Shown piece after piece: positions 17,371 to 36,048 of a stretch of 38,303 nucleotides of DNA. Numbering within the stretch: position 1 is the first letter of the stretch; the number at the start of each line of letters is the position of its first letter. The notes under the pieces are model-generated. The model was not told the DNA's origin and searched no databases. It saw only the letters and a program-made list of their open reading frames with translations. The stretch is from the NCBI GenBank assembly GCA_046541755.1, contig JBKHCQ010000001.1, forward strand, positions 1 through 38,303, in the 5' to 3' direction. The translations under genes and the position numbers were made by a program. This DNA is from Anaerolineales bacterium (lineage in GTDB: Bacteria; Chloroflexota; Anaerolineae; B4-G1; SLSP01).

Positions 17371-17386
17371 CAATTAGGAGGTAGGT

Positions 17387-17935: not shown

Positions 17936-17980
17936 TCTATAAAGTCTGCGTGGAACTGAGGGTAAAAAGGTAAAGATAAT

Positions 17981-18349: not shown

Positions 18350-18372
18350 TCCTGTGGAGGAGAAGTTAGTCT

Positions 18373-19091: not shown

Positions 19092-19110
19092 TGGGATCGG
19101 AGGCAAGAAT

Positions 19111-19593
19111 ATGAAGTTACATGAACTACATCCTGCCAAGGGAGCTAAAAAGTCGCGGAGGCGAGTAGGGCGTGGGATCTCTGCCGGTCAGGGAAAGACT
19201 GCCGGTCGAGGGACTAAAGGCCAGAACGCGCGCACCGGCGGCGGCGTCTCCCCCTATTTCGAGGGGGGCCAATTGCCATTAGTTCGTAGATTACCCTTTG
19301 TGCGGGGTCAGGGATTTTCTAATCCTTATCATTTAGAGTTTGAACCGATAAATATTGATGAGTTAGTCCGGCGATTCGAAGCGGGGGCGGAGATTTCTCC
19401 TCAGTCCCTAGTCGAAGTTGGCATGATTAAACACGAGGATGATCTGATCGTTGTGTTGGGGCGCGGGGAAATTGATATCCCTCTGAAGATTAAGACCCAT
19501 CGCATATCTGATTCGGCGCGAGCCAAGATTGAAGCCGCCGGCGGCGAAGTGGAATTGTTGCCCTGGCAACGTGGCGGCTATCGAACCCGCTAA
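19111..19593 (+). CDS. rplO: 50S ribosomal protein L15 (start trimmed to ATG 19111)
   Basis: MKLHELHPAKGAKKSRRRVGRGISAGQGKTAGRGTKGQ... Confidence 0.95.
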   Translation: MKLHELHPAKGAKKSRRRVGRGISAGQGKTAGRGTKGQNARTGGGVSPYFEGGQLPLVRRLPFVRGQGFSNPYHLEFEPINIDELVRRFEAGAEISPQSLVEVGMIKHEDDLIVVLGRGEIDIPLKIKTHRISDSARAKIEAAGGEVELLPWQRGGYRTR

Positions 19594-19618
19594 TCAGTGA
19601 GATAAACGGAGGAAAGTG

Positions 19619-20926: not shown

Positions 20927-20940
20927 GATTTGAAGAAGTG

Positions 20941-20949
20941 TGGTATAAT
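20941..20949 (+). promoter_or_regulatory. Extended -10 promoter candidate (TGgTATAAT) ahead of rpmJ; no good -35
   Basis: TG at 20941-20942 and TATAAT at 20944-20949, in the 181-nt secY-rpmJ spacer. Confidence 0.3.
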
Positions 20950-21107
20950 AAAACGTCGCATGCCCATCGGGCGTGGGTTCGTTAACTTAAAAAATAATCG
21001 CATTGTAGCGTGCAAAACCTTTTCTGGGATAAGTTGGAAAGTGGTGGGAAGTATTCTGTATCTGAGCCGGATGTCTTATCCCCGGCTTAAAAGACAGGAG
21101 GATACAA

Positions 21108-21221
21108 ATGAAAGTATCATCATCTGTGAAGAAACGTTGTCCAAAGTGTAAGATCGTTCGTCGTCGAGGTGTCGTGCGAGTGATCTGCGAAAATCCTAAG
21201 CATAAGCAGCGCCAGGGATAG
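21108..21221 (+). CDS. rpmJ: 50S ribosomal protein L36 (zinc-binding C+ form); not in the supplied ORF track
   Basis: Hand translation gives [45 protein letters not shown] at 21095-21100. Confidence 0.93.
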
Positions 21222-21255
21222 CCGGCGCTCATTTTAAGGAATTTGGGGAGGAAGT

Positions 21256-21645
21256 ATGGCACGTATAGCAGGTATTGACCTTCCGCGGGATAAGCGCGTT
21301 GAAATTGGATTGACCTATATCTACGGCGTCGGGCGCAAGACCAGTAATGATATCCTGGCGCAGGCGGGCATCAGCCCCGATAAGCGCGTGAACGAATTAA
21401 ATGAGCGCGAAGTAGCTCGCATTCGTGATATCATTGACCGCAATTACGTCGTCGAGGGCGACCTCCGACGCGAAGTGCAGCGCAATATTAAGCGCCTGAT
21501 CGAGATTGGTTCCTATCGGGGGCTACGTCACCGGCGCAATTTGCCCGCGCATGGTCAACGAACACGCACGAACGCTCGCACTAAGCGCGGCCCGCGTAAG
21601 ACCGTCGCTGGTCGTGGGCGTCGTCGCGGTGCTAAGAAGAAGTAA
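21256..21645 (+). CDS. rpsM: 30S ribosomal protein S13
   Basis: [27 protein letters not shown]... Confidence 0.97.
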
Positions 21646-21770
21646 ATTGGAACCCTGGGATTGGGGGGCGATGGTTGAGAGGCTATTTTGATCATTGGCT
21701 CCCCATCTCAAATCCGCTGAATCATCAGCGACGTTAAATTTTGTTAGGATGGGGTTTTTAGGAGGATTGA

Positions 21771-22178
21771 ATGGCTAAACGTTCATCTCGACGTAGTAGC
21801 AAGAAAAAAACACGTCGTATGAAGCGGAGTGTCTCGCATGGACATGTCTATGTGCACACGACGTTTAACAATACGATTGTAACCTTCGCCGACACACAAG
21901 GGAATGTATTGCGTTGGGCTAGCGCTGGCTCGGTCGGGTTCAAAGGAACGCGCAAGAGCACGCCCTTTGCCGCGCGATTAGCGGCGGAAAAGGTGGCCCA
22001 AGAGGCGATGGATAACGAGGGAATGCGGGAAGTGGATGTCTTTGTGAAAGGGGCCGGCCCAGGACGCGAAGCTTCGTTGCGTGCTATCGCGGGAAAGGGT
22101 TTGCGAGTCCTTTCCATCGTTGACACGACCCCCATTCCTCACAATGGATGCCGCCCGCCCAAAAAGCGGCGCATATAG
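21771..22178 (+). CDS. rpsK: 30S ribosomal protein S11
   Basis: ...[45 protein letters not shown]... Confidence 0.97.
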
Positions 22179-22198
22179 ATAGGCAGACAGGAGGCAAT

Positions 22199-23161
22199 GT
22201 GTTAGTTGCACCAGTGCTGCCCAAAATAGAAATAGACGTTAATACTCAGCATTATGGCCGATATATCATTGGCCCGCTGGAAAGTGGTTATGGCACGACG
22301 CTGGGTAATTCCCTGCGTCGGGTATTACTCTCCTCACTAGAAGGGGCGGCGATCACGGCGATGCGAATCACGGATATCCCTCATGAGTTCACCGCCATTC
22401 CAGGCGTGCAAGAGGACGTGATTCAAGTGATGCTGCGTCTCAAGCAAGTGCGGCTTACAATGAATGGTGAAGGGCCGCAGTACATGGCTCTCCGTGTGGA
22501 AGGGGAAGGCGTCGTCACGGCCGGGGATATTATCGCCCCGCCGGAGATTGAATTGCTGAATCCGGAGTTGTATCTTTTCTATGTTGATGACGAGGAATCT
22601 CATTTGGATTTCGAGTTCACCGTAGAGAAGGGCCGTGGCTATCAACCTGCGGAGCGGCGCGAGCGGGCGCCCATCGGCGTCCTGCCCGTGGATGCAATCT
22701 TCAGCCCGATCCGCAGAGTGACATTCCATGTGGATCAGGCCCGTGTCGGGCAGTTGACCAACTATGACCGGCTTACGATGGATATCTGGACGGACGGTCG
22801 TGTGGAGCCGTTGGATGCGTTGAAACAATCGGCCCGCGTGCTGGTAAAGCACCTGCGACTTGTCGCCGGCGCGGAGGTCGAAGAAGAGATCGAATCGGAA
22901 GAAGAAACTGAAGAAGAGGAAATTCCACATCAGGCCTATGCTACACCTATCGAGGATTTGGGATTGAGTGTGCGCGTCTATAATGCGTTGAAGCGCACAG
23001 GCATCTCCAATGTGGGCGAGGTCCTGGAAATGTTGGCGCGCGGTACGGATGCACTGTTGGCCGTACGTAACTTCGGTGAAAAATCGCTGGAAGAGGTCAT
23101 TGAGCTACTGGAAGACAGGGATTTCTTGACTGAGGGAGAAGTGGAAGAAGTGACGTTGTAG
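22199..23161 (+). CDS. rpoA: DNA-directed RNA polymerase subunit alpha (GTG start at 22199)
   Basis: ...GRYIIGPLESGYGTTLGNSLRRVLLSSLEGAAI...; C-terminal domain LGLSVRVYNALKRTGISNVGEVL. CAGGAGG SD at 22188-22194. The track start at 22148 overlaps rpsK. Confidence 0.95.
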   Translation: MLVAPVLPKIEIDVNTQHYGRYIIGPLESGYGTTLGNSLRRVLLSSLEGAAITAMRITDIPHEFTAIPGVQEDVIQVMLRLKQVRLTMNGEGPQYMALRVEGEGVVTAGDIIAPPEIELLNPELYLFYVDDEESHLDFEFTVEKGRGYQPAERRERAPIGVLPVDAIFSPIRRVTFHVDQARVGQLTNYDRLTMDIWTDGRVEPLDALKQSARVLVKHLRLVAGAEVEEEIESEEETEEEEIPHQAYATPIEDLGLSVRVYNALKRTGISNVGEVLEMLARGTDALLAVRNFGEKSLEEVIELLEDRDFLTEGEVEEVTL

Positions 23162-23331
23162 CCAGGGCGGAGGTTGTCTTTTTGGCGCTTCGTGCTATGA
23201 TACCGCGCTGTTGAAGGCTCTGAGGTTAAAGCCGTTCCAAGAAATAAAATTCCCAAAAACGGGCGGTTTTCTGAGAAAAATATCAGGTTTGGGAGGCTTA
23301 AATCCTGGAACTTCTTATAGGGAGGTGAAAA

Positions 23332-23718
23332 ATGCGACATCGAGTCGCGGGTAAAAAACTAAATCGATCATCGAGCCATCGGACCGCTCTGCGACGTAAT
23401 TTGATCAAGGAATTGTTCCGTCACGGGCAAATTCGCACCACGCGAGCTAAGGCCGAGGCGGTTCAAGGACAATCCGAGAAGATGATTACCATCGCCAAGC
23501 GCGGGATTGCGTCTGGCGATCCAGTGAAGGAACTCAATGCGCGACGCCGGGTGGCTTCGCAACTTAATGATCCAGAGGTTGTGCAAAAGTTGTTTGATGA
23601 ACTTGCTCCTCGCTATATGGATCGTCCGGGTGGTTACACGCGGAGACTAAGGTTAGGATGGCGCAAGGGAGATGCGGCAGAATTAGTTCTGTTGGCATTG
23701 GTTAAGGAAGAACTTTAA
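23332..23718 (+). CDS. rplQ: 50S ribosomal protein L17
   Basis: MRHRVAGKKLNRSSSHRTALRRNLIKELFRHGQIRTT... Confidence 0.96.
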   Translation: MRHRVAGKKLNRSSSHRTALRRNLIKELFRHGQIRTTRAKAEAVQGQSEKMITIAKRGIASGDPVKELNARRRVASQLNDPEVVQKLFDELAPRYMDRPGGYTRRLRLGWRKGDAAELVLLALVKEEL

Positions 23719-23744
23719 CACACGACGTTAGACGGATGTAAACG

Positions 23745-24515
23745 ATGCGATACAAGGCCATCATCGCCTACGACGGAACGGCGTATGCAGGCTTTCAGCG
23801 TCAGAAAAACGCCTTCACCATTCAAGAGGAGATTGAGGACGTTTTAGGGACGTTGATGTGCGCATCCATCCGCGTGACGGCCGCCGGACGTACCGACGCG
23901 GGCGTCCACGCCGAAGGCCAAGTGATCGCCTTCGAGGGGGTGTGGCGACATTCCACCGCCGACTTACATCGCGGGATGAACGCCCTGCTCTCCGATCACA
24001 TCGCTATCGTTCATCTGTCTGAAGTCGAGGCGGATTTTCACCCCCGTTTCGACGCGGTGCGTCGTCAGTATCGGTACACAATTTACCAGGCCCCGATTCC
24101 CAACCCATTGGTTCAGCGCACCAGCTTGCACATCTCACAGGCGTTGGATCGCGAAGCGATGCAGGCCGCGGCGGGAACTTTGGTGGGGCGGCACGATTTC
24201 GCTGCGTTTGGTTCACCGCCTCAAGGACATAATGCTGTTCGGGAGGTCTATCGCGCAGCGTGGTCGTGGGCCGAAGGGACAGCTTATGGCCGCTTGGGTG
24301 ATCGAAGCGCACACACGTGGTTGTACTTTGATATCGAAGCCAACGCATTTTTATATCGAATGGTAAGAATGTTGGTCGGGACGATGTTGCGGGTTGGCTC
24401 CGGCGCGTTGACGCCGGAGGAATTCGCCGCCATCTTGGATACACAAGATCGCAATCGCGCCGGCCCGGCTATCGCAGCGTGTGGCCTTTCTTTGCAGGCT
24501 GTCCTGTATGAGTAA
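23745..24515 (+). CDS. truA: tRNA pseudouridine(38-40) synthase TruA
   Basis: MRYKAIIAYDGTAYAGFQRQ...AAGRTDAGVHAEGQV...F..NAFLYRMVRMLVGT. Confidence 0.93.
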   Translation: MRYKAIIAYDGTAYAGFQRQKNAFTIQEEIEDVLGTLMCASIRVTAAGRTDAGVHAEGQVIAFEGVWRHSTADLHRGMNALLSDHIAIVHLSEVEADFHPRFDAVRRQYRYTIYQAPIPNPLVQRTSLHISQALDREAMQAAAGTLVGRHDFAAFGSPPQGHNAVREVYRAAWSWAEGTAYGRLGDRSAHTWLYFDIEANAFLYRMVRMLVGTMLRVGSGALTPEEFAAILDTQDRNRAGPAIAACGLSLQAVLYE

Positions 24516-24560
24516 AAAACATAAGGTTATTTGGATCTTATATCAGGGAGTATAGCAAAA

Positions 24561-25007
24561 GTGAAACGAGCAATCTTACACAAGACCTACATGGCCAAGC
24601 CAGGTGAGGTCGAACGAAAATGGTATGTTGTTGATGCAAATGGTCAAACATTAGGGCGATTGGCGACGCAGGTTGCCAGCGTCCTGCGGGGCAAGGGCAA
24701 GCCGAGCTACACGCCCTACACCGATATGGGCGACTATGTCATCGTGGTCAATGCGGAGAAGGTGAATGTTACCGGCCGCAAACTTGATCAGAAATTCTAT
24801 TATCGGCACTCCGGCTATCCCGGTTCATTGAAGGCGGTTTCATTGCGTCGGATGTTGGAATTGCATCCTGAGCGCGTCATCGAGCACGCCGTTAAGGGGA
24901 TGTTGCCGCGTGGCCCATTGGGGCGTCGTATTTACAAGAAGCTCAAGGTGTATCCGGGTGGAGAGCACCCGCATCAGGCGCAGCAGCCTGAGGTTTTAGA
25001 GCTGTAA
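24561..25007 (+). CDS. rplM: 50S ribosomal protein L13 (start uncertain: GTG 24561 preferred, ATG 24591 possible)
   Basis: ...[38 protein letters not shown]... Confidence 0.92.
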
Positions 25008-25019
25008 GGAGGCGGATGA

Positions 25020-25406
25020 ATGTATTATGAGGGTTTAGGTCGCCGCAAGACATCGACGGCGCGAGTTCGTCTTTATCCAGATGGAGATGGTCAGATTCTA
25101 GTCAATGGTAAGCCCTATCGCGAGTATTTCTCTCGCGAAATGGATTGGCAGGCTGTTATAGATGCTCTCGAAGCCACCGACACATTGGGAGATTTCAATG
25201 TCACAGTCCAGGCGCGTGGCGGCGGCGTGATGGGGCAGTCCGAAGCTGTGCGGATGGGCGTGGCCCGAGCGCTGCTCAAGGTCAACCCCGAACATCGTCC
25301 TGTGCTACGGCATGCCGGCTTTTTGACCCGCGATCCTCGCATGAAGGAGCGCAAGAAGCCAGGTCTCAAGCGCGCACGCAAGGCGCCGCAATACACCAAG
25401 CGTTAA
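25020..25406 (+). CDS. rpsI: 30S ribosomal protein S9
   Basis: ...GLGRRKTSTARVRLYP...GGGVMGQSEAVRMGVARAL...RDPRMKERKKPGLKRARKAPQYTKR. Confidence 0.97.
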   Translation: MYYEGLGRRKTSTARVRLYPDGDGQILVNGKPYREYFSREMDWQAVIDALEATDTLGDFNVTVQARGGGVMGQSEAVRMGVARALLKVNPEHRPVLRHAGFLTRDPRMKERKKPGLKRARKAPQYTKR

Positions 25407-25461
25407 CGAGTGTCTGGAGGCCCGTCAGCGGGCTGCTATATTCCCGTTAAAACAAAATGCT

Positions 25462-25493
25462 AACAGGTAGGCAGCAATCGCTGCCTACCTGTT
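25462..25493 (+). terminator. Rho-independent terminator after rpsI
   Basis: 14-bp perfect stem AACAGGTAGGCAGC / GCTGCCTACCTGTT, loop AATC, followed by TGTTGTG. Confidence 0.75.
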
Positions 25494-25524
25494 TGTTGTG
25501 TCGCGTGTGAGGAGGGAGTGCTTT

Positions 25525-27000
25525 ATGGGACATTTGACCATCATTGGATTAGGGCCGGGATCGCCCAAAGATCTGACGCGCGAGGCCTGGGAAGTTCTCT
25601 CGCAGCTTGATGAGGTATGGTTGCGCACCACCCATCATCCGGTGGTGCGCAGTTTGCCCGCCGGATTGGACGTGCGCTCCTTCGATCATCTCTATGAAGC
25701 GGCGGAGACCTTCGAGGATGTCTATGTTCAGATCACGGCGCAGATCTTGTCGCTGGCGGCGCGAGCGCAGGGGGTGACCTATGCCGTCCCCGGCCATCCG
25801 CTGATGGGCGAATCGACTGTCACCCGCATTTTATCTGCGACGATGGATCGGGACCTTCCTATTCGGATCGTGGCGGGCCTGAGCTTTTTGGAGCCATCAT
25901 TGACCGCGTTGGCCTATGATGCACTAGATGGCCTGCAAATCATCGATGCGTTGGAGATGCTGGCTCTCCATCATCCGCCGCTTAACTCCGATTTCCCGGC
26001 GTTGATTGGGCAGGTGTATAGTCGTGCCATCGCCTCCGAATTGAAGTTGGTCCTGATGAATCAGTATCCCGATACCCACGAGACCGTGCTCATCGACGCG
26101 GCGGGGACCCCCGCCCAAACGGTGCGCCGCCTCCCGCTCTATGAAATCGACCGTCACCCCGTTTCCCCGCTGACCTCGCTGTACATCGCGCCGTATCTGC
26201 CCCCGGCTTACGCCGATTGCTCGGCGCCGGTGTATGGTAGCTTTCAGGGCTTCCAGAATACCATCGCGCAGCTCCGCGCGCCTGATGGCTGCCCATGGGA
26301 TCGCAAGCAGACTCATGCCTCGCTTCGCCCTAATCTCTTGGAAGAGACTTACGAGGTGTTGGCCGCGATTGATGAAGATGACACGGATGCGCTCCGCGAG
26401 GAGTTGGGCGATTTGTTGTTGCAGGTGGTGTTGCAGACCCAAATCGCCATCGAAAGTGGAGAGTTTGATATGGCGGAGGTCATCGCCGGCATCGACGCGA
26501 AGCTCAAGCATCGCCACCCGCACGTCTGGGGTCAGGTCGAGGTGGACGGCGCAGAAACCGTGACCAAGAATTGGGAGGCGCTCAAACGCGAGGAGCGCGT
26601 TGCCAATGGGAAGGCAAAGCGCTCAGCACTGGATAGCATTCCCACGGCGCTGCCGGCTTTGGCGCAGGCAATGGCCTACATTGGACGCGCGGCGCGTGTG
26701 GGCGGCGGCTTGAAATCCATCACCGAGGTAGAAACCTACGTCGAGAATACGCTGGCTGCATGGAAGGCGGCGGAATCTCAGCGAGAGCAACATCGCGCGA
26801 TAGGAGAATTGCTCCTGGCCCTCGTGGCCTGGGCGCAATGGCGCGAGGTGGACCCCGAAAGCGCCCTCCGTGAAGCGAACCTCCGTTTTGTCCGCCACTT
26901 CCGGCAGCTTGAATCTCTGGCCAGAGAACGCGGCGTCTCGATAGCGGATCTCGCGCCGGAAAAGCGCGCGCAGCTTTGGGCGCGGACAATGGAATTGTAG
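25525..27000 (+). CDS. YabN-like fusion: tetrapyrrole (corrin/porphyrin)-type SAM methylase domain + MazG nucleoside-triphosphate pyrophosphohydrolase domain
   Basis: N-terminus LTIIGLGPGSPKDLT (TP-methylase GxGPG motif). C-terminal half has CPWDRKQTHASLRPNLLEETYEVLAAIDEDD...LREELGDLLLQV (MazG EExxE/D signature). GAGGAGGGAG SD precedes ATG 25525. Confidence 0.85.
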   Translation: MGHLTIIGLGPGSPKDLTREAWEVLSQLDEVWLRTTHHPVVRSLPAGLDVRSFDHLYEAAETFEDVYVQITAQILSLAARAQGVTYAVPGHPLMGESTVTRILSATMDRDLPIRIVAGLSFLEPSLTALAYDALDGLQIIDALEMLALHHPPLNSDFPALIGQVYSRAIASELKLVLMNQYPDTHETVLIDAAGTPAQTVRRLPLYEIDRHPVSPLTSLYIAPYLPPAYADCSAPVYGSFQGFQNTIAQLRAPDGCPWDRKQTHASLRPNLLEETYEVLAAIDEDDTDALREELGDLLLQVVLQTQIAIESGEFDMAEVIAGIDAKLKHRHPHVWGQVEVDGAETVTKNWEALKREERVANGKAKRSALDSIPTALPALAQAMAYIGRAARVGGGLKSITEVETYVENTLAAWKAAESQREQHRAIGELLLALVAWAQWREVDPESALREANLRFVRHFRQLESLARERGVSIADLAPEKRAQLWARTMEL

Positions 27001-27500: not shown

Positions 27501-28235
27501 TCAAGTCAGATGTTTTGTGGCAGTGATCAAAAAGAATGGCAGATGTACCACCTGCGACCACGACCCTGTAAGCGTCTTGGCTTGGCGCTCGATGTGATCG
27601 AGTTGGGCGCGCTCTTCTGGGGTGAGGGGCAGCCCGCGCAATAGATCAAAGCGCTGGGTGGCCGGCGGGCGCAGCGAGTCGAAGAGATCGACCCGCACCT
27701 CGAAGCCCTGCTCGGCGCACAGGCCGGGGAACTTGCGCCCCACCTGTGGATCGGCGCCCGCGCGCTGTAGCCCCGCGATCCACAACTCGCGGGTGGCGAT
27801 CTCTGACGGATGTTCCATCATCCCGCCGTAGTCCGGCGCCAGTGCGATCCACACGCCGTCGGCCATCAGAACGCGCCAGACCTCCCGCACAGCAGCCGCG
27901 ACGTCGTCGATCCAGAGCGTGGTCAGTTGGGAGAAGACGAGATCGAAGTGGGCCGCTCGAAAGGGCAACCGCCGGGCGTCGCCGCCGACTAAAAGCGTGC
28001 CCTCGGTCTGGATTTCGCCCAGAGCCGCGACCGCGCGATCTAAGGCGATGACCGCGCCCTCGGCGCGGCGCACCAACTCGGCGGTGACGGCGCCGCGCCC
28101 CGCGCCCAGATCCAGAACGCGCCGCCGGCGTGCGATGTGGATGCGCCGCAGAAGGCGCGCGCGGGCCGGCGCCAACCACTCGGCCTGATGCGCCAACAGC
28201 GCCGCCGAGGGCGCGGCGGAAGTCGAGGACATCAT
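27501..28235 (-). CDS. Class I SAM-dependent methyltransferase (start trimmed to ATG 28235, 7 nt after the upstream stop)
   Basis: VLDLGAGRGAVTAEL (motif I GxGxG), ...VIALD..., ...FDLVFSQLTTLWIDD..., ...VLMADGVWIA. The track start at 28313 overlaps the upstream gene. Confidence 0.85.
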   Translation of the reverse strand: MMSSTSAAPSAALLAHQAEWLAPARARLLRRIHIARRRRVLDLGAGRGAVTAELVRRAEGAVIALDRAVAALGEIQTEGTLLVGGDARRLPFRAAHFDLVFSQLTTLWIDDVAAAVREVWRVLMADGVWIALAPDYGGMMEHPSEIATRELWIAGLQRAGADPQVGRKFPGLCAEQGFEVRVDLFDSLRPPATQRFDLLRGLPLTPEERAQLDHIERQAKTLTGSWSQVVHLPFFLITATKHLT

Positions 28236-28242: not shown

Positions 28243-30135
28243 CTATCTGCCGCCGCCCGCGCAGGCGCACGCGCAAGCACACCCGGCGCACGCGCACGCG
28301 CATCCACTCCCACCGCCGCTGTCGCCGCTCTTCGAGGATTCCATCAGCGCGGTGAAGACATCGCCCGTGACCTTATCCACGCCGCTGAGATCGACGACGC
28401 CGCCCTTGACTTGGGGCGCTTGCAAGGAGCCAGGCAGGATCGCGGCGGCCATGCCGCCCATCGTGCTCTCGGCCCAGCCGGCAAATGAGGCGCCCACGTC
28501 GCCAAAGGTCGTGCGCCCGCCGCCGCTGCTGCTCTTGCCGCCGCCTATCGAAGGGCCGCCGCTGCTTGTCGCGGGGCGCATGGCGTGGCGCGCCCAGATC
28601 GGCCAATAGTGATGGCCGTGGTGGGTCATGACGGTGGGGTACTCCTCGTTCATCATCACCCACGGCAGGTACTTATCCAGATATTTCTCCCGCTGCTCGA
28701 TCTCGCCGATGGACGACGCCTGTTTCATCGCCCGGTCCATCACCCGGCGATAATAATCCTGCGTGTCGGAGAGATCAAAGCCCTTCATCTTGGCGGCCGC
28801 GATCTTGATCAGCCACTCCATCGGCTTACTGAAATCGATCTCCTGCACCGGCTTGTCCGAGTGCTGCTCGATGAGATCTAAGAAGCGATCCTCATAGCTG
28901 TGGACGACGGTCCCCTTGCGTTGCGCGACGTTTTGGCGATAGGCGCGGCGTTCCTTGATGGTGTCCAAGTCCGATTGGTCCATTACCTTGAAATCCTCGG
29001 CGACCTTGACCTGGAGCGGATCGGCCTGCTCTTGCTCTAAAAGGCCCTTCTCCAAGAGGCCGAAGATCACCAGGGTGAGCACTTTGTTGAGCGGCATCTC
29101 CAGAATGATCGCCGCCTCGGGCGCTGTCAGCCCGCGCTTGATGCCGCCGCCCTCGACCTCGGCAATCGCCGGCAGGTAAGTGCGCTTCTTGCGCTTGCCC
29201 TTGTGTTTCCGCAGGGTGGTTTCATTGAAGAGGGTGAGCGCGATTAGAATTGGGATGCTGAAGAGTACCATCAGCGGGCCGATGAAAAAGAGGAAAACCG
29301 CGCCGCCCAGCAGCAGGACGTAGACGGTGCAGCCGGTGCCGCCCGTGAATCGGAAGAAGAGGAAGCTAAGGAGGGCGATGTTGAACGCGCCCAGCATCAG
29401 ATAGACCATCGGGTTGTCGGTGAGCCATTTGTTAGTCAGTTGGAAGATGTTCATCGTGATGACGTTCTGCATCACGCGCTTGGGGAAGGAAACGCCGACC
29501 AGATGCTCCCGCGTGATTTTGGTCTCCGGCCATTCCCAGAGCGCGACGACGCGGTCGTTAAAGAGGGCCTTGTTGGTAAATTCCTCTTTCTGATAGACGA
29601 CCTCATCCGGCTCGACGCCTTCGGGGATGTGGATGGCCAGTTGGAGATGGGTCGTGCCCCGCACCAAGTCGCTATCGAACCACGTGGGCGTGATCTGGAG
29701 CGAGGCTTTCTCTTTGTCCGTGGTATCTTGATAGACCATATCGGGCATCGTGAACTCGAAGTGAAGTGTGCCCTGCTCGCCACGCCCGATCTCCTGGCCG
29801 TCGAGATGTACCTCCACGCCGGTATCGATGTATTCGGATGTGCGAATATCCGTCAGCGGTTCCCCATCGATGGAGGCGCTCATATTGCCGATGTCGTAAT
29901 TATCGTGTGGCGTCCCGATGTCCACCACGTCGATGGGGTCGCCGTGATTTTCGAAGGTGATGTCATAGACGATGCGGACGGAGGCGTCGGGCTGGACGTA
30001 GACCTGCATCTGCATTTGGGGGACGGCGAAGCTGTAGCTTTGCGCCAGTATGGGATTCCCAACCAGCGTGAGCAGTAGCACAATCACCGGGATGAGCGCG
30101 AGATGTCGTAAGCTTCTCTTCATGTTCATTTTCAT
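28243..30135 (-). CDS. DUF2207-like polytopic membrane protein with a Gly/Ser-rich region and a C-terminal alternating Cys-Ala tail (GCACACAGCACACACAGGGR)
   Basis: 630 aa. It has an N-terminal signal/anchor (LALIPVIVLLLTLVGNPILA) and a beta-rich ectodomain with a DUF2207-like opening (YSFAVPQMQMQVYVQPDASVRIVYDITFEN...). Three hydrophobic helices span about aa 245-310 and are followed by KHKGKRKKR. A soluble domain of about 300 aa follows, then GGPSIGGGKSSSGGG...SGDSGGGSG and the Cys-Ala tail. ATGA overlap with the upstream gene. Confidence 0.75.
   Translation of the reverse strand: MKMNMKRSLRHLALIPVIVLLLTLVGNPILAQSYSFAVPQMQMQVYVQPDASVRIVYDITFENHGDPIDVVDIGTPHDNYDIGNMSASIDGEPLTDIRTSEYIDTGVEVHLDGQEIGRGEQGTLHFEFTMPDMVYQDTTDKEKASLQITPTWFDSDLVRGTTHLQLAIHIPEGVEPDEVVYQKEEFTNKALFNDRVVALWEWPETKITREHLVGVSFPKRVMQNVITMNIFQLTNKWLTDNPMVYLMLGAFNIALLSFLFFRFTGGTGCTVYVLLLGGAVFLFFIGPLMVLFSIPILIALTLFNETTLRKHKGKRKKRTYLPAIAEVEGGGIKRGLTAPEAAIILEMPLNKVLTLVIFGLLEKGLLEQEQADPLQVKVAEDFKVMDQSDLDTIKERRAYRQNVAQRKGTVVHSYEDRFLDLIEQHSDKPVQEIDFSKPMEWLIKIAAAKMKGFDLSDTQDYYRRVMDRAMKQASSIGEIEQREKYLDKYLPWVMMNEEYPTVMTHHGHHYWPIWARHAMRPATSSGGPSIGGGKSSSGGGRTTFGDVGASFAGWAESTMGGMAAAILPGSLQAPQVKGGVVDLSGVDKVTGDVFTALMESSKSGDSGGGSGCACACAGCACACACAGGGR
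28258..28303 (-). repeat. Coding microrepeat (TGC-GCN)n that specifies 7 Cys alternating with Ala/Gly; includes an 18-nt perfectly alternating purine/pyrimidine tract (28286-28303)
   Basis: Codon-by-codon read: Cys codons at 28261, 28267, 28273, 28279, 28288, 28294 and 28300 (plus-strand 'gca'/'aca'). Confidence 0.85.
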
Positions 30136-31499
30136 TCGATACCTCCTGTCTGCGCGTCAGATTCATCTTCTGTATGCTCCGTATCCATCACCGGAATTTG
30201 AAGATCGGCCGGATCCGGATACTCGAACTGTTCATTGTACGTCAGGGGCGGCTCGACCTTCTCGCGATAGATGCGGAAGGCGTCGTGCTGCCAGATAGTC
30301 TCCCAATCGTCTTTTAGAATGTTGCCGACGCTCTGAATCGGGCCGCGCGAGGGGATGACCTCGCCGTTGGGTTCGACGCGCACCGCCGTATCCTCGGTAC
30401 AGCGCGGCCCCTGCCGGACCTGTGCAGCCAGCGGAATCTCGGGGCGGCGCGGCATCGGAGGCGCCCAGAGGAAGCGCATCTGCGTCTGCGTCGCGGCCTC
30501 CTCCACCTGCGCCTCGAGCTGCGGCAGCGCCGCCACCGCGAGCGCATCATCTTTCTCCTCTGACTTCTCTGACCACTTCTCTGACGTCGGCTCCTCAGTA
30601 AGAACATAGGCCACGAAGGCGATGTTGTCCACGCCCAATTCAGCCATCTCCTCGACGGTCGCCTCCAACTCCTGCGCGGTGCGTTGCGTGAGGGGCATCT
30701 CGGCGATGGCACAGATTTCGTTGGCCTCCAGCCAGTCGAAGAGGGCGGTGGCCGCTGCGTGATCTCCCGCGCCACAGAGCGCATCATGCAGCGCGGGATC
30801 GGTGGCCGCGTAGAGCACGGTCACGTGATCCACACCCGCCATCATCACATCCTGGAGCAGTTCCTCGTCCCAGAGATCGGTCGCGCGACCTCGCACGCCG
30901 GCGATCATTCCCAGATCCTCCGCCAATTCGATGGCGCGGATCAAATCGCTGCGCTCGAATTCCTCCGGCGCCAGGACGGTGACGTTGGGGATGCCCACCT
31001 CCCAGAGTCGACGTAGCAGTGGCGTCATCCGGGTCGGATCGGCGAGCGGCACGCTGGCCTGGAGCGGCGCGATCAACTGCGCTTCGTAGGGCGAGAAGGC
31101 GGCGTCATTGAGCGTGAAGAGCGGGTAGGCGTCGCGAGGGTTGGTGATCTGCCGGATGAGGCCGGTGACTTGCGCAATGTCCGTGCGCATCTGTTCCTCA
31201 GCGCCGCCCTCGAAATGGGCTTGCAGGCGATGGAGGATCTCGTTTTCATCTTGGCCGTCCAACAGCCCCTTGGCGATCACGGCGCCGCTGGGGGAGAGTT
31301 GGGCGGCCGCCGCCGCGTTGGCGATCAACAGGCCGCTGCCGTCGCGCTCGACCCGCAGATGGAAGCGCGTGTACATCCCATCGGCCTCCTCCAGGGCGTG
31401 ATAGAGGCCCGGCTCGACGGGCGGCCCGCTCTCCGGCTCGTCGCGCTCGATGCTGAAGATGCGCTCCCAAAAATCCTTGATTAGTTCTTGAATGTTCAT
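30132..31499 (-). CDS. Pseudo-radical-SAM paralog: PqqD/RRE-like N-domain + rSAM-like barrel without CxxxCxxC + degenerate SPASM-like C-terminus (start trimmed to ATG 31499)
   Basis: 455 aa starting MNIQELIKDFW, behind AGGAGGGAG. The N-domain (PGLYHALEEADGMYTRFHLRVERDGSGLLIANAAAAAQLSPSGAVIAKGLLDG) aligns by eye with the N-domain of the upstream rSAM enzyme. The protein has only 3 Cys, none in a cluster motif. The tail VRVEPNGEVIPSRGPIQSVGNILKDDWETIW mirrors the SPASM segment IEPNGDVLPCQSYYVTAGNLLTDPWDEIW but lacks its Cys. Confidence 0.75.
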   Translation of the reverse strand: MNIQELIKDFWERIFSIERDEPESGPPVEPGLYHALEEADGMYTRFHLRVERDGSGLLIANAAAAAQLSPSGAVIAKGLLDGQDENEILHRLQAHFEGGAEEQMRTDIAQVTGLIRQITNPRDAYPLFTLNDAAFSPYEAQLIAPLQASVPLADPTRMTPLLRRLWEVGIPNVTVLAPEEFERSDLIRAIELAEDLGMIAGVRGRATDLWDEELLQDVMMAGVDHVTVLYAATDPALHDALCGAGDHAAATALFDWLEANEICAIAEMPLTQRTAQELEATVEEMAELGVDNIAFVAYVLTEEPTSEKWSEKSEEKDDALAVAALPQLEAQVEEAATQTQMRFLWAPPMPRRPEIPLAAQVRQGPRCTEDTAVRVEPNGEVIPSRGPIQSVGNILKDDWETIWQHDAFRIYREKVEPPLTYNEQFEYPDPADLQIPVMDTEHTEDESDAQTGGIE

Positions 31500-31518
31500 G
31501 TAAAACTCCCTCCTGAAT

Positions 31519-32988
31519 TTATGATTGGACGGCCTGCGTTGCTTGCGGAACGCGCGCGCCGGCTCGACCGCAACCCCGTTCGGGCGCGCCGATCTGTTGC
31601 GCCTCGCGCTCCAGCCGGCAGCCGCCGCCGCACATCGGTAGATCGGGGCAATCCCAGCATTTGCGGGGCAATCCCGCCGCCTCCGGGTTCTCCTCGCGAT
31701 CCCGGAAGCTGCGGAAAAGCGCGCTGTTCCAAATCTCATCCCACGGATCGGTGAGGAGGTTGCCCGCTGTGACGTAATAGGATTGGCAAGGGAGGACATC
31801 GCCATTTGGCTCGATGCACATCGAATACTCGGCGGCGTTGCAGCGCTTGGGATCCAGCCCCAGCGCGACCGGCGAGAAGCGACAGTACTCCGTCACCGTG
31901 TACCAGAGGAAGCGCATTCCCAGCGCCTCGGCGCGCTTGCGTACCTGGATCAGCAGCGGCGCCATCTCCTCGGCGGGGATCGCGTCCGGCGTCGCGAGGC
32001 CGCCGCCGGCGTAGATCATCCCGTTCATCGCGAAGGTCCGCACCCCCAGATCGTACAGAAAATCGACGATCTCCACAGCGTGCGCTTGATTCTGGCGGGT
32101 CAGCGTGGTGTTGGTGATGGTGTGGATGCCGCTCGCAAGCGCGTTCTCGATTCCCTGGACGGTCTCCGCGAAGGCCTGCGATCCCGGCAGGCCGACCATC
32201 GCGTTGTGCTCCGCCGCCCGGCACGACTCCAGCGTGATCTGCACGTGATTGAGGCCCGCCTCGGCCAGCGAGGACGCCAGCGCGGGGCGCGCCAGCCGTC
32301 GCCCGTTGGTGTTCATCCCCACGATGTGCCCCTGCGCGTCGGCGTGGCGGATGATCTCCTCCAGGTCGGGATGCAGCGTCGGCTCGCCGCCGGTGAGAAT
32401 CACGTGCGGGACGCCGATCTCGTTCAGCTTATCGAAGACGCGGCGCCAATCCGCCAGGGAGAGCGTGGACATCGCGAAGCGTTCGCCGGGGTTGTAGCAA
32501 TGAGGGCAGGCATTGTTGCAGGCGTAGGTGAGCGCCACATCAACCTTGTAGGGGGCGTTCGCGGGCGCGCTGAAGAGCGGGCGAAAGTCCACCCGGTCGG
32601 CAATTGCGCAGATGCGACATCCGCCCTCCGGCGCGCGCAACGTCGCCACCATCTCGTAGATCTTGGTCACGTCGCGCGCCAACTGCGCATCGGCCACATC
32701 CACATCGGTGAAGCGCCGGGCCATCCGGGCGCGCGCCTCCGCCGCCGGGATTTCATCCAGGGCCAGCTTGGCGATCTCCGTTGCTGTGGCGTTGAGGTGG
32801 ATGACGTCGGTGACGTCGATGAAGAGCGCGCTGTGACCCTCCGGCTGGACGCGCAGGTGGATGCGCCGCTCCCCGTCCTCCGGGGCAATCCGGTAGGTGT
32901 AGAGGCCTGGCGCCGGCGGGGACGGCGCGGGCTTGAGCCACGATTGCATCGCCGCCCGCAGGCGCGCCCACCAAGGTTGCGTGGTCAT
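31519..32988 (-). CDS. Radical SAM / SPASM-domain enzyme with an N-terminal PqqD-like RiPP-recognition element
   Basis: 489 aa. CNNACPHCYN (CxxxCxxC) is encoded at 32497-32520. The GGEPTL SAM-binding motif is present. SPASM signature: C-x-AEYSMCIEPNGDVLPC...GN...C-WDC-x5-CGGGC. N-terminal about 110 aa: GLYTYRIAPEDGERRIHLRVQPEGHSALFIDVTDVIHLNATATEIAKLALDE. Confidence 0.9.
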   Translation of the reverse strand: MTTQPWWARLRAAMQSWLKPAPSPPAPGLYTYRIAPEDGERRIHLRVQPEGHSALFIDVTDVIHLNATATEIAKLALDEIPAAEARARMARRFTDVDVADAQLARDVTKIYEMVATLRAPEGGCRICAIADRVDFRPLFSAPANAPYKVDVALTYACNNACPHCYNPGERFAMSTLSLADWRRVFDKLNEIGVPHVILTGGEPTLHPDLEEIIRHADAQGHIVGMNTNGRRLARPALASSLAEAGLNHVQITLESCRAAEHNAMVGLPGSQAFAETVQGIENALASGIHTITNTTLTRQNQAHAVEIVDFLYDLGVRTFAMNGMIYAGGGLATPDAIPAEEMAPLLIQVRKRAEALGMRFLWYTVTEYCRFSPVALGLDPKRCNAAEYSMCIEPNGDVLPCQSYYVTAGNLLTDPWDEIWNSALFRSFRDREENPEAAGLPRKCWDCPDLPMCGGGCRLEREAQQIGAPERGCGRAGARVPQATQAVQS

Positions 32989-33015: not shown

Positions 33016-33357
33016 CTACCACTTAGGCGCTTCTTCGATCTGGTACGTGGAGCCGCAGTAGGGGCAATGGACAAAAATCGCGCCGGCCTTGACCTCCAGC
33101 GCGTCCCGATCCAACGTGCCGCCGCAACTGCGGCATTTCATCTGCTCTAAATTGACATCACCGGAGAGATCGATCTTCTGGATCATCGTCGTCTCCGTCT
33201 TCTGCGGGCGCACCTGCGTGAGGTAGATCAACATGCCGGCGCTGGCTATCAAGATTACGCCCACGATGATCCATCCTATGCCTCCCGTTCCACCAACGAC
33301 GAACATCACGCCAAAGAAACCCAGCACCGCCGCGATCAGATAGGTCACAAGTTTCAT
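33016..33357 (-). CDS. Small membrane-anchored zinc-ribbon protein (two N-terminal TM helices + CxxC...CxxC)
   Basis: 113 aa: MKLVTYLIAAVLGFFGVMFVVGG...IIVGVILIASAGMLIYL...CRSCGGTLD...VHCPYCGSTY. Confidence 0.7.
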   Translation of the reverse strand: MKLVTYLIAAVLGFFGVMFVVGGTGGIGWIIVGVILIASAGMLIYLTQVRPQKTETTMIQKIDLSGDVNLEQMKCRSCGGTLDRDALEVKAGAIFVHCPYCGSTYQIEEAPKW

Positions 33358-33691: not shown

Positions 33692-34006
33692 ATGGCACTT
33701 AAGATTAAAGCGTATGAGGATAAACTTGCCGAGTTGTGTGTTGCCTATGGCGTCCAGCGATTAGAGGTGTTTGGCTCGGCAACCAGAGATGATTTTGATC
33801 CTCAGCAAAGCGACATGGATTTTCTGGTCGTCTTTGAAGATGCTCGCCCCCATGGCGCATTTGATCGTTATTTTGGCTTGAAAGAGGCCTTGGAGCGGCT
33901 TTTTGAACGTTCTGTTGACTTGGTTGAAGAAAAAGCGATCAAGAACCCGTATTTTCGACAGGCGATCTTGCGAGATAGGATGGTAATCTATGGAACTGGC
34001 GGCTAA
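33692..34006 (+). CDS. mntA: MNT-type nucleotidyltransferase antitoxin (type VII TA)
   Basis: 104 aa with FGSATRDDFDPQQSDMDFLV (GSx10-11 D-x-D NTase motif). It overlaps the HepT gene by 17 nt. Confidence 0.85.
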   Translation: MALKIKAYEDKLAELCVAYGVQRLEVFGSATRDDFDPQQSDMDFLVVFEDARPHGAFDRYFGLKEALERLFERSVDLVEEKAIKNPYFRQAILRDRMVIYGTGG

Positions 34007-34343
34007 AAAGCTGGTCTATGATGTGGATCAGGCTGTCAATTTGATCACTGAATTTACAGCGGACAAAGAGTTTGAGGATTACGCAACGGATGTTATGTTG
34101 CGTTCCGCCGTTGAACGGCAATTTGAGATTGTTGGCGAAGCCCTCAACCGTTTGAAGCAGGTTGATATGCAATTGCTCTCGAGGATCAGTGATTACCATC
34201 GCATCATTGGCTTTCGAAACGTGCTTGCTCATGGGTATGATGTCGTCTCGGATGAGATTGTATGGGACATTATCCAGAACCGGCTGCCGCTGTTGCGTCA
34301 AGAGATCGATGAGATCAAGTGGGAAGCGGGTATAGCGGATTGA
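33990..34343 (+). CDS. hepT: HepT (DUF86/HEPN) RNase toxin
   Basis: 117 aa with FRNVLAHGYD (Rx4HxY HEPN motif). Confidence 0.85.
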   Translation: MELAAKKLVYDVDQAVNLITEFTADKEFEDYATDVMLRSAVERQFEIVGEALNRLKQVDMQLLSRISDYHRIIGFRNVLAHGYDVVSDEIVWDIIQNRLPLLRQEIDEIKWEAGIAD

Positions 34344-34452
34344 TAGTATAAATTGCTTCTTCACTTCGTTCTTGACGCTTGACTGCCAGAAGATAACCCC
34401 CGAAGTTTCCCCGCTGATTCCCCAGTATCTTCCATAAATAACCAGATAATCA

Positions 34453-34480
34453 TTGAACAAGCCCTCTTTTAAGGTATAAT
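34453..34480 (+). promoter_or_regulatory. Sigma-70-type promoter candidate TTGAAC-N16-TATAAT, ending 8 nt before ATG 34489 (implies a leaderless or near-leaderless mRNA)
   Basis: TTGAAC at 34453-34458 and TATAAT at 34475-34480. There is no SD between the -10 and the ATG. Confidence 0.45.
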
Positions 34481-34488
34481 TCCTCTGT

Positions 34489-36048
34489 ATGGAGACGAAG
34501 AAATGGTCACGGGCTTGGGCCGATATACTCACCGAGGAACTTGACCGGCCGGTGCGGCTGCGTGTGCGCGGGGCGAGCATGGCCCCCACGCTTCGACCTG
34601 GCGATGTGGTGATGGTCGAGCCGATCACCGACGCGGCGCTCCGCCTGGGCGATTGGGTGCTCGTGCGCGGCGAGCGCGAGAATTACCTCCATCGCTACGT
34701 GGGGCGGCGCGCGGATCGCGTGCTCACCAAGGGCGACGCTCATCGGCGGCTCGATCCCCCCTGGTCGCCCGCTGCGATCCGAGGCCGCGTAACCGCCGCC
34801 TATCGCGACGACGCCTGCTACTATCGCCGGACGCCCCGCCGGCAACGTCGCGAGCGCGTGCGCGCCGTCGGTCATCGCGTCGGCGGCGAGGTGTGGAGCG
34901 CGCTCGCCCGCCTCAAAAGCTGGCTTCTGCTCCTCTTGCTGTTGGCTGTCACTATCACCGGCGTCTATGCCGCCGTCACCGTGACCGAGTTCACCGCCCA
35001 ATGGGACGGCGACCAAGTCCATCTCCATTGGGAGACGGCCAGTGAGACTGGAAATCTGGGTTTTATGCTCTGGCGTCGTGAGGAAGGTGAAGGCGACTTC
35101 GAGACGATTTTTGTCGAAATTCCCAGTGAAGAAGGCCTCACGGATTTTGTGCCGGGGATCGGGGACATCGTCGGCGCCAGCTATGATGCCTACGACGTGA
35201 ACGTGACGCCCGGCATCGCCTACGAGTACCAGCTTCAGGATGCGCCGGACGACGGCAGCGAGGGGGAGATGTTCGGGCCGGTGACGCCGATGGCTAACGA
35301 TACGCCGACGCCAACCTCCACGCCTACGCCGCAGCCGGCGGCCACGGCCACCCCCACGATCCGCCCAACGCGGACGCCAACGGCCAACCCTTCGCCCTCT
35401 CCCACGCCGACCCCGCGCGTGCAGTTTTGGGCCGATCAGGAGAACCTCGCCGCCGGGACGTGCACGACGCTGCATTGGACAACCGAGAACATTCAAGCCG
35501 CCCACTTGAATGGCGAGGGCGTCGACGGCAGCAGCTCGAAGACCGTGTGCCCGTGTGAGGATGTGACCTACACGCTCCGGGTGATCTACAAGGATGACAC
35601 CGAGGAGGATTTTGACATCGCCTTGAGCGTCACCGGCACGTGCGACGACGCCTCGGACGCCACGGCCACAGCGACCCCCTTCCGTGTCACGACGGCGACC
35701 CCCGGCGCGACGCCGACCGCCTCCCCGACCCCCACAACCTCCGCCGCCGATGCCCCGACCGCCACGCCCACGTCATCGCCGACCGCCGCGTCAGCCTCCG
35801 GCGCCGAGACCGATTCGCCTCTCCCGACGCCCGCCGCGCTGACGCCCACGCTCGCCGCGCCCGATCCCGCCGATTCGACGGTGACGCCATCTACCACTGC
35901 TAGCCCGACCCGTCCCGCCGTCGCCGGCGAACAGCCGGCCTTCGCCTCCCAGGAGCGTCCCTCTAACTTGCTCCTGCTAGGCGGCGGCATCGGATTTGGC
36001 CTGCTGCTCATCGGCGTGGGCGTCTGGCTGTGGGGCCGTCATCGGTGA
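34489..36048 (+). CDS. Fusion protein: N-terminal S24/S26-type (signal-peptidase/LexA-like) serine peptidase domain, TM helix, two beta-rich ectodomains separated by Pro/Thr/Ala-rich linkers, C-terminal TM anchor with a basic tail
   Basis: 519 aa. RVRGASMAPTLRPGDVVMV (GxSMxPTL box) and TKGDAHRRLDP. TM WLLLLLLLAVTITGVYAAV. Linkers TPTPTSTPTPQPAATATPTIRPTRTPTANPSPSPTPTP and a long A/T/P tract. C-terminus PSNLLLLGGGIGFGLLLIGVGVWLWGRHR. Confidence 0.7.
   Translation: METKKWSRAWADILTEELDRPVRLRVRGASMAPTLRPGDVVMVEPITDAALRLGDWVLVRGERENYLHRYVGRRADRVLTKGDAHRRLDPPWSPAAIRGRVTAAYRDDACYYRRTPRRQRRERVRAVGHRVGGEVWSALARLKSWLLLLLLLAVTITGVYAAVTVTEFTAQWDGDQVHLHWETASETGNLGFMLWRREEGEGDFETIFVEIPSEEGLTDFVPGIGDIVGASYDAYDVNVTPGIAYEYQLQDAPDDGSEGEMFGPVTPMANDTPTPTSTPTPQPAATATPTIRPTRTPTANPSPSPTPTPRVQFWADQENLAAGTCTTLHWTTENIQAAHLNGEGVDGSSSKTVCPCEDVTYTLRVIYKDDTEEDFDIALSVTGTCDDASDATATATPFRVTTATPGATPTASPTPTTSAADAPTATPTSSPTAASASGAETDSPLPTPAALTPTLAAPDPADSTVTPSTTASPTRPAVAGEQPAFASQERPSNLLLLGGGIGFGLLLIGVGVWLWGRHR

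Follow-up and report, generated by a model that had tools for sequence, protein, structure and literature searches.

A Cys-Ala tail on a bacterial membrane protein, conserved across phyla and encoded beside a radical SAM/SPASM enzyme: a candidate protein modification system

The window analysed here, a 38,303-nucleotide stretch of DNA from an Anaerolineales bacterium (assembly GCA_046541755.1, contig JBKHCQ010000001.1, positions 1 to 38,303), holds an apparent operon of five co-directional genes, which runs on the minus strand from 33357 to 27501 with gaps of no more than 27 nt. In order, the genes encode a zinc-ribbon protein (ZnR), a true radical S-adenosylmethionine (SAM) enzyme with a SPASM region, a degenerate paralogue of that enzyme (pseudo-rSAM), a membrane protein that ends in a strict alternation of cysteine and alanine, and a class I methyltransferase. 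This Cys-Ala tail, and its relationship to the radical SAM (rSAM) enzyme, is the subject of the present analysis. The stop codon of the pseudo-rSAM gene overlaps the start of the tail protein gene (ATGA), and the ATG of the methyltransferase gene, at 28235, lies 8 nt past the tail protein's stop. The genes, and the features at the end of the tail protein, are:

33016..33357, minus strand: ZnR, a small membrane-anchored zinc-ribbon protein of 113 amino acids (aa) with two transmembrane (TM) helices and four invariant Cys; first gene of the cassette
31519..32988, minus strand: true radical SAM/SPASM enzyme, 489 aa (Pfam, invariant columns, AlphaFold2 model)
30132..31499, minus strand: degenerate ('pseudo') radical SAM/SPASM paralogue with a PqqD-like N-domain (by homology)
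28243..30135, minus strand: tail-bearing membrane protein, 630 aa (translation and AlphaFold2 model; mean pLDDT, the model's per-residue confidence, 77.6)
28336..28395, minus strand: conserved segment VDLSGVDKVTGDVFTALMES, residues 581-600, specific to subfamily 1 of the tail proteins (alignment)
28303..28335, minus strand: Gly/Ser linker SKSGDSGGGSG, residues 601-611 (pLDDT ~30; length and sequence vary among homologues)
28246..28302, minus strand: tail CACACAGCACACACAGGGR, residues 612-630, 19 codons; proposed core or substrate peptide
28243..28245, minus strand: stop codon of the tail protein
27501..28235, minus strand: class I SAM-dependent methyltransferase, 244 aa, last gene of the cassette (Pfam Methyltransf_11, 2.3e-15)

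Translation of 28243..30135 terminates in ...SKSGDSGGGSGCACACAGCACACACAGGGR*, such that the C-terminus reads SKSGDSGGGSG-CACACAGCACACACA-GGGR-stop. Within the 15 residues of CACACAGCACACACA there are seven cysteines in strict Cys-Ala alternation, broken by a single Gly. A preliminary description of this DNA had reported such a tail on a 630-aa membrane protein, together with a flexible Gly/Ser linker ahead of it, and the translation confirms both; the range it assigned, 28246..28326, covers the tail and also takes in eight residues of the linker. Linker and tail are disordered in the AlphaFold2 (AF2) model, with a pLDDT of about 30.

The AF2 layout of the whole protein begins with a signal peptide or anchor, followed by a confident, extracytoplasmic beta-sandwich (residues ~35-220), TM helices (~242-313), a winged-helix-like module plus helical domain (~338-519), and lastly the disordered region that includes the tail. 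The final TM helix is followed by RKHKGKRKKR in the window protein and by RRRRR in a distant, single-TM subfamily described below. Under the positive-inside rule these K/R-rich stretches assign a cytoplasmic position to the C-terminal half and the tail, which is also the side of the membrane where the rSAM enzyme resides, and the protein is predicted to be a type-I-like membrane protein. A fold search likened the beta-sandwich to the N-domain of M1 aminopeptidases and to OST1, resemblances that carry no information on the tail.

Sequence searches with the window protein found no Pfam family even at E≤10, no NCBIfam family and no match in the PDB. At E≤0.01 neither the window protein nor three members of the distant subfamily matched any NCBIfam family, TIGR04222 thus being unmatched, and one member of that subfamily gave a faint DUF2207_C match (E=0.046, 13.9 bits against a cut-off of 33). 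The earlier suggestion that the protein is of DUF2207/TIGR04222 type is therefore not upheld.

Conservation of the tail is exceptional. All of the 120 nearest homologues, which are 53-88% identical overall, end in CACAGCACACACAGGGR, with an extra N-terminal CA being optional, and in a 39-sequence alignment with a mean column identity of 60% the last 17 columns form the longest invariant block. The Ala positions are as invariant as the Cys positions. Among 28 genome loci and 80 metagenome loci every synonymous codon is used at each codon of the tail and all three stop codons occur, the variation in codon usage amounting to 53 and 100 distinct DNA versions. Because every tail codon varies synonymously, selection is on the peptide rather than on a DNA or RNA element; the tail, as read from these sequences, is under extreme purifying selection at the protein level.

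The same data bear on a more trivial explanation, namely that a (TGC GCN)n microrepeat prone to slippage underlies the tail, as a contingency locus, or that GC-rich sequence has given rise to an assembly or frameshift artefact. An imperfect hexamer (period-6) repeat is indeed detectable at 28254..28302, and discrete repeat-number variants distinguish lineages. The repeat, however, is only 71% matched, with codons differing between copies; repeat number is fixed for each lineage or paralogue (a 19-mer in the upstream of two tandem paralogues, a 17-mer in the downstream one); and the same frame and peptide recur in hundreds of independent assemblies. Comparison of homologues thus refutes this explanation, and we attach practically no probability to it. 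The preliminary description had entertained copy-number variation by slippage, a frameshift or assembly error, and homologues devoid of any Cys-rich terminus. Alignment of homologues revealed conserved C-x-C periodicity and a repeat number restricted to a few discrete, lineage-fixed forms, which together with the imperfect DNA repeat runs counter to the first; the identical ending of all 120 closest homologues rules out the second and is the opposite of the third.

The tail extends well beyond close relatives of the window protein. An exhaustive search of 1.84 billion representatives (E≤1e-3) returned 759 clusters, so that these proteins make up a superfamily, without annotation so far, that numbers at least 759 clusters at 50% identity. 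Besides subfamily 1, to which the window protein belongs, there is a distant subfamily 2, whose members are 31-42% identical, measure ~520-770 aa, have a single TM helix and come from Zixibacteria, a 'Deltaproteobacteria' metagenome-assembled genome, Chloroflexota and others. The subfamily-2 tail is permuted, reading CACACACAG-CACACA-GGGR; 3+3 and 5+3 variants also occur, as do rare changes of G to S or of AG to VS. In general terms the tail can be written as (CA)n-G-(CA)m-GGGR-COOH, where n is 2-5 and m is 3-4, and 424 of the 437 tails collected are canonical, with (n,m) being (2,4), (3,4), (3,3), (4,3), (5,3) or (2,3). Family sequences that lack the tail look like contig-end fragments or frameshifts.

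A second search made no use of the protein family: metagenome DNA was scanned with the back-translated shared core CACAGCACACA. This produced 86 motif matches in 80 metagenome loci, 85 of them situated at ...GGGR-stop, the sole exception being an internal chance match. The host open reading frames (ORFs) of sufficient length all belong to the superfamily (19 to subfamily 1 and 66 to subfamily 2). The notion that the tail is a portable sorting tag carried by unrelated proteins was accordingly rejected: with every testable host ORF in one superfamily, the tail is a family-specific terminus.

Two features of the family accompany the tail. Within VDLSGVDKVTGDVFTALMES, the segment that precedes the linker, residues L583, G585, D587, T590, F594 and A596 are invariant in the 39-sequence alignment; the segment is missing from upstream tandem paralogues and from subfamily 2, and might serve in recognition or docking. 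Tandem paralogues of the tail protein are found in many Anaerolineae (loci L003, L005, L007, L008, L009, L011, L028, L065, L096, L112 and L154). In genome loci the upstream copy always has the 19-mer (3+4 Cys) and the downstream copy always the 17-mer (2+4), and a VDLSG...GDxF segment is kept in the downstream copy and missing from the upstream one; L154 is an exception, with a 19-mer on both copies. Some family members are longer by 150-300 residues (P0132, 948 aa; P0177, P0185, P0192 and P0203, 766-774 aa; P0221, 838 aa), their extra N-terminal or internal regions having no Pfam match; all retain the canonical tail.

The genes of the window cassette recur alongside the tail in both subfamilies. 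The order in subfamily 1 is ZnR, rSAM, variable inserts, pseudo-rSAM, an optional second tail paralogue, tail protein and methyltransferase. In metagenome loci of this subfamily pseudo-rSAM lies upstream of the tail protein in 10/11 cases and the true rSAM in 9/11, and the methyltransferase lies downstream in 12/16; in genome loci with sequence at that point the methyltransferase is immediately downstream in 24 of 25. The order in subfamily 2 is ZnR, tail protein, true rSAM/SPASM and sometimes methyltransferase. Where subfamily-2 loci have at least 600 bp of flank the true rSAM directly follows the tail protein in 51 of 54, at a median gap of ~70 bp; ZnR directly precedes it in 29 of 31, and a methyltransferase is found within 6.5 kb in 11 of 26. 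These partners are related to those of the window (rSAM 42-43% identical to the true rSAM, ZnR 42-52% identical). Searching from the side of the rSAM enzyme gave the same association, tail proteins being located within ~6 kb in all three orthologues on long contigs. Ser/Thr kinase, GNAT and MetH-activation-like inserts between rSAM and pseudo-rSAM are not conserved and hence fall outside the system. In the genome and subfamily-2 loci examined the cassette includes no conserved protease or peptidase and no conserved exporter or transporter.

The enzyme encoded at 31519..32988 has the marks of a true radical SAM protein. It matches Pfam Radical_SAM (7.8e-27) and SPASM (1.3e-12); the motif CNNACPHC (CxxxCxxC; residues 157-164, cysteines C157, C161 and C164) is invariant in 40/40 aligned orthologues, and the family retains the GGE motif. 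Of its C-terminal cysteines, C369, C383, C401, C444, C447, C453 and C457 are invariant, while C391 and C473 are at least 90% conserved. A further invariant CxxC (C124/C127; 32608..32619, minus strand) lies between the N-terminal domain and the radical SAM core, beyond the canonical cluster cysteines. The N-domain itself matches Pfam PqqD weakly (E=4.4e-4, 21 bits, below the cut-off of 23.4). In the AF2 model (predicted template-modelling score, pTM, 0.81) this domain consists of beta-strands (28-65) and then three helices (67-118) ahead of the barrel. The best full-length structural neighbours are SkfB, SuiB (second) and CteB, followed by anSME and PqqE, and alignments to the SkfB, AlbA and StsB models are full-length, N-domain included. 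On the basis of the model and these alignments the enzyme appears to have the architecture of peptide maturases that contain a RiPP recognition element (RRE; RiPP, a ribosomally made peptide that is post-translationally modified), with an RRE-like N-domain and a putative docking function.

Comparison with curated maturase families (SkfB, AlbA, StsB, SCIFF/CteB, PqqE, MftC, HxsB/C, ACGX, GeoRSP and ScmE/F) left the window and subfamily-2 enzymes below every NCBIfam cut-off; the best scores were 121 bits for AhbD (cut-off 500) and 116 for PqqE (381).

The second rSAM-like gene is of a different kind. CxxxCxxC is present in 0/27 of its orthologues, the GGE SAM motif is replaced by APEE, Pfam finds only weak SPASM and PqqD matches, and a PDB sequence search gave no match. 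We consider the protein non-catalytic and plausibly an adaptor, as judged from its sequence. The 'rSAM pair' noted in the preliminary description therefore comprises one true rSAM/SPASM enzyme (31519..32988) and a degenerate partner (30132..31499) without CxxxCxxC. Four cysteines of the C-terminal SPASM region are kept in 22 of the 27 orthologues, and the clade of the window has Y, P, P and T in their place, a pattern that suggests stepwise decay of the cluster sites. The start of pseudo-rSAM was placed by homology at 31499 (MNIQELIKDF...). The mechanically defined ORF runs 102 codons further upstream, to 31805 (31500..31805, minus strand), where it shares sequence, in a different frame, with the 3' end of the true rSAM gene; this Arg/Ala-rich extension is probably untranslated. 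Genes for rSAM-like proteins without CxxxCxxC also occur in some subfamily-2 loci (L055, 3493..4725; L153, 14179..15375, minus strand), so that the pairing of an active with a dead enzyme recurs outside subfamily 1. In L153 it is the pseudo-rSAM that follows the tail protein, the true rSAM lying ~2.5 kb away on the opposite strand beside a methyltransferase.

The adjacency of tail and enzyme in two divergent subfamilies and several phyla, together with the architecture of the enzyme, strongly backs an idea already put forward in the preliminary description, that the tail is the prime candidate for the rSAM substrate, and it is from these facts that we infer it. The balance of the evidence leans, by a modest degree, towards a tail that is a protein-embedded 'core peptide', forms the cytoplasmic terminus of a type-I-like membrane protein and is modified by the co-encoded rSAM/SPASM enzyme. 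The enzyme would dock via its RRE-like N-domain, and the tail, held out on the disordered Gly/Ser linker, would present its cysteines to an auxiliary Fe-S cluster. In the thioether-forming enzymes PapB and Tte1186 a substrate Cys or Sec binds the auxiliary cluster in this way (PMC10177961). By analogy with these two and with CteB, a tail Cys bound to the cluster would become linked to a carbon radical. Chemistry of the 5'-deoxyadenosyl radical would then install Cys-centred modifications repeatedly along the tail; the Cys-Ala repeat suggests iterative action of the enzyme. The likeliest products would be sulfur-to-carbon thioether cross-links such as those made by sacti- and ranthipeptide synthases, which by analogy are our leading guess for the chemistry, and conversion of Cys to formylglycine or another Cys-derived group is a possible alternative. 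The class I methyltransferase would probably add a tailoring methylation, and ZnR and, in Anaerolineae, the catalytically dead rSAM paralogue may serve as scaffolds or adaptors. A hairpin about the central Gly that pairs each Cys with an Ala was also considered; it follows arithmetically from the (CA)n-G-(CA)m pattern and provides no evidence.

Taken further, the cassette may equip a signal-transducing or structural membrane protein, at its cytoplasmic end, with a new post-translational structure, by means of an RRE-guided, processive rSAM/SPASM enzyme assisted by a dead paralogue and a zinc-ribbon adaptor, with methylation to follow. This fuller scheme we advance tentatively, with doubt outweighing conviction. 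Candidate products would be a ladder of sulfur-to-carbon cross-links or a scaffold for a Cys-derived cofactor or metallocluster.

A number of points count against the tail as core peptide. The case is built from sequence, synteny and predicted structure. Since the rSAM enzyme scores far below every curated cut-off, its chemistry is not assignable by homology, and since the cassette is without a protease or exporter, the system is not a conventional RiPP. No leader-like recognition motif is common to subfamilies 1 and 2. The tail protein has just pseudo-rSAM and the methyltransferase in its vicinity in 8/28 genome loci (L010, L012-L018), within the flanks available, and one subfamily-2 copy (L083) is an orphan; because it is absent nearby in these loci, the true rSAM must either act in trans or be dispensable. 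Furthermore, the CxCxC comb is also a classic metal-thiolate motif, and the C-terminus of ZnR is nearly invariant, so that ZnR could be the real substrate. The last two points each lead to an alternative.

The first alternative holds that the tail is a comb for binding metal or Fe-S clusters, which senses, stores or hands over metal or a cluster at the membrane, perhaps to or from the clusters of the rSAM enzyme, with no covalent modification. Six to eight closely spaced cysteines on a flexible cytoplasmic tether would suit such a role, Cys-x-Cys being the dominant metallothionein motif. The hosts, going by record titles and metagenome sources, all appear to be anaerobes rich in Fe-S enzymes, and the partner rSAM, by its cysteines, is predicted to carry three Fe-S clusters. 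Combs of this type normally tolerate changes at the x positions and in repeat number, however, whereas in this tail Ala, the lone Gly and GGGR do not vary from one phylum to another. Ala as invariant as Cys, and the invariance of Gly and GGGR, suit recognition by an enzyme better than loose binding of metal. Nor is a metallochaperone or metal transporter conserved in the cassette, and the near-obligate presence of an rSAM neighbour of the RRE-containing, peptide-maturase type is left unexplained. We regard a metal comb as unlikely, though deserving of consideration.

The second alternative concerns ZnR. Among 75 unique sequences from both subfamilies its extreme C-terminus is near-invariant, C-P-Y-C-x3-Y-Q-x2-E-x-P-K-W-COOH, with six of the last nine positions (Y-Q-x2-E-x-P-K-W) conserved at 97-100%. 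Such an end could itself be the substrate of the rSAM enzyme and take a Lys, Trp or Tyr cross-link, leaving the Cys-Ala tail for docking, redox sensing or regulation of a complex. Consistent with this, linkage of the ZnR gene is as tight as that of the rSAM gene (29/31 loci), and SuiB, second among the structural neighbours, is one of the rSAM/SPASM enzymes that make Lys-Trp cross-links. Yet Lys and Trp are adjacent in ZnR, a geometry for which we know of no precedent in such cross-links. The subfamily-2 rSAM gene, moreover, directly follows the gene for the tail protein and not that for ZnR, and the tail is conserved more strictly still, on a flexible linker like those of core peptides. ZnR as the real substrate is thus improbable. 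ZnR also has a motif, (I/V)DL(P/S/T)G(D/N)V, that resembles VDLSGVDKVTGDV of the tail protein; ZnR could be a second substrate, or could use this motif for docking.

A third alternative makes the tail a target of multiple S-acylation or other lipidation, which would pin the C-terminus to the membrane. The presence of a Cys cluster at the end of a membrane protein is what invites it. No acyltransferase is conserved in the cassette, and lipidation explains neither the invariant Ala, Gly and GGGR nor the linkage to rSAM; to our knowledge, cytoplasmic S-palmitoylation is essentially without example in bacteria. The chance that lipidation accounts for the tail is very slight.

The remainder of the window consists of core chromosomal genes encoded on the opposite strand (rpoB, fusA, tuf, ribosomal protein operons, secY, rpoA, truA and yabN). 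The cassette adjoins this transcription and translation cluster in the window (1..27000, plus strand) and tuf-secE-nusG-rplK in locus L032, where (14841..17662) fragmented EF-G/LepA-like ORFs are also near; this neighbourhood is probably merely conserved chromosomal context. Upstream of the cassette are two mutually overlapping ORFs without a Pfam match (33939..34628, minus strand, and 34489..36048, plus strand) and a 708-aa Peptidase_C25 (gingipain-like) protein (36030..38156); the ORFs in 33939..38156 are conserved only in the closest relatives (L001 and L019). A scan for promoters and terminators gave counts no higher than in shuffled sequence. The best NCBIfam match of the methyltransferase is the DVU_1556 family (59 bits against a cut-off of 155), and in L013 (5665..7410), a locus without a nearby true rSAM, MoaA and MoaC lie just upstream of pseudo-rSAM; both the resemblance and the proximity may be coincidental.

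New peptide chemistry comes mainly from radical SAM/SPASM enzymes, and nearly all known targets of these enzymes are small secreted precursor peptides. Of the systems described to date, those for sactipeptides and ranthipeptides (AlbA/SboA, SkfB/SkfA, CteB/SCIFF, PapB) are similar in having an rSAM with an N-terminal RRE (RRE-like here), a CxxxCxxC core and a SPASM or twitch region, and a Cys-rich target encoded beside the enzyme; SkfB and CteB are also among the best structural neighbours of the window rSAM. Their target, however, is a 40-60-aa leader-core peptide, whereas here it would be the last 17-21 residues of a membrane protein of 520-770 aa, and the short, cleaved and released precursor that typifies RiPP-like systems is thus not what is found. 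The window cassette differs in addition by its lack of a protease or exporter and by maturase-model scores far below cut-offs. We know of no sacti- or ranthipeptide core with strict Cys-Ala alternation. What these systems provide is a chemical template, a thioether formed by way of Cys binding to the auxiliary cluster (PMC10177961).

The HXS system, a recent precedent in which rSAM enzymes mature a repeat-bearing protein effector, shares a short-period repeat on a real protein and an rSAM-family pair with a small accessory protein (HxsA with its His-Xaa-Ser repeat, HxsB/HxsC and the small HxsD); it, too, was found first by comparative genomics and assigned a function later (PMC13128918). It differs in the repeat (HxS as against CA) and in the location of the target, HxsA being a secreted periplasmic effector and the tail a predicted cytoplasmic appendage of an integral membrane protein. 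Furthermore, one of the two rSAM paralogues in the window is catalytically dead by its sequence, and HxsC-type models score 58-83 bits against cut-offs of 268-500.

Modification of Cys in a functional protein by an rSAM/SPASM enzyme has parallels in anSME, which converts Cys or Ser of sulfatases to formylglycine and whose structures are among the fold-search matches of the window rSAM, and in QhpD, which forms thioether cross-links in QhpC. anSME, however, has no RRE and acts on one Cys in C-x-P-x-R, and QhpC is a small soluble subunit; neither enzyme has a repeat target or a membrane-protein substrate. The coupling of an authentic rSAM/SPASM enzyme to a paralogue that has lost its SAM-cluster cysteines is known from the TIGR04347 'pseudo-SAM/SPASM protein' and its TIGR04053-type partner. 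Both models are among the matches, at 16.5 bits (TIGR04347) and 110.8 bits against 525, far below cut-offs, and the pairing is for this reason best seen as an independent occurrence of the same evolutionary pattern.

With DUF2207 (PF09972/PF20990) and TIGR04222 proteins the tail protein has in common a signal, an extracytoplasmic beta-rich domain, a TM segment, a cytoplasmic 'GLTAPEAA...' winged-helix-like segment and a Gly-rich, low-complexity C-terminus, and one subfamily-2 member bears the UniRef label DUF2207; an invariant Cys-Ala tail and linkage to rSAM are not among the features described for those families. Metallothioneins are similar in dense Cys-x-Cys spacing, yet there is no sequence relationship, and the tail differs in its invariant x positions and repeat number and in being the tethered terminus of a membrane protein. 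For the anti-phage defence systems that it covers, PADLOC offered no specific model for the cassette, only generic rSAM-core (pVip) and methyltransferase (mad2) matches, and nothing for the tail protein, pseudo-rSAM or ZnR; release 2.0.0 of PADLOC-DB is from 2023, and HXS may be missing from it. The tail-protein superfamily and the three accessory families are not described by any Pfam, NCBIfam or PADLOC model, and a literature search (the peptide string, DUF2207 with radical SAM, and Cys-Ala repeats) found no description of the system in the library covered.

A tail found unchanged in hundreds of distant bacteria, with a radical SAM enzyme almost always encoded next to it, points to a candidate protein modification system without earlier description. 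In its gene content and domain architecture it resembles an RRE-dependent rSAM maturase with an adjacent Cys-rich target, and appears common, if unannotated, in anaerobic environments: it is widespread among anaerobic Chloroflexota, Zixibacteria and other phyla, and since Anaerolineae are abundant in digesters and sediments, it is environmentally common. Its coupling of an active rSAM to a dead paralogue adds to the examples of such pairs. The apparent target is the 17-21-residue end of a large membrane protein, conserved across phyla and encoded together with its partners. The system probably embodies either novel rSAM chemistry that acts on a Cys-Ala repeat or a metal- or cluster-binding appendage of a new kind; if the former is true, RiPP-type chemistry would extend from secreted peptides to an integral membrane protein.

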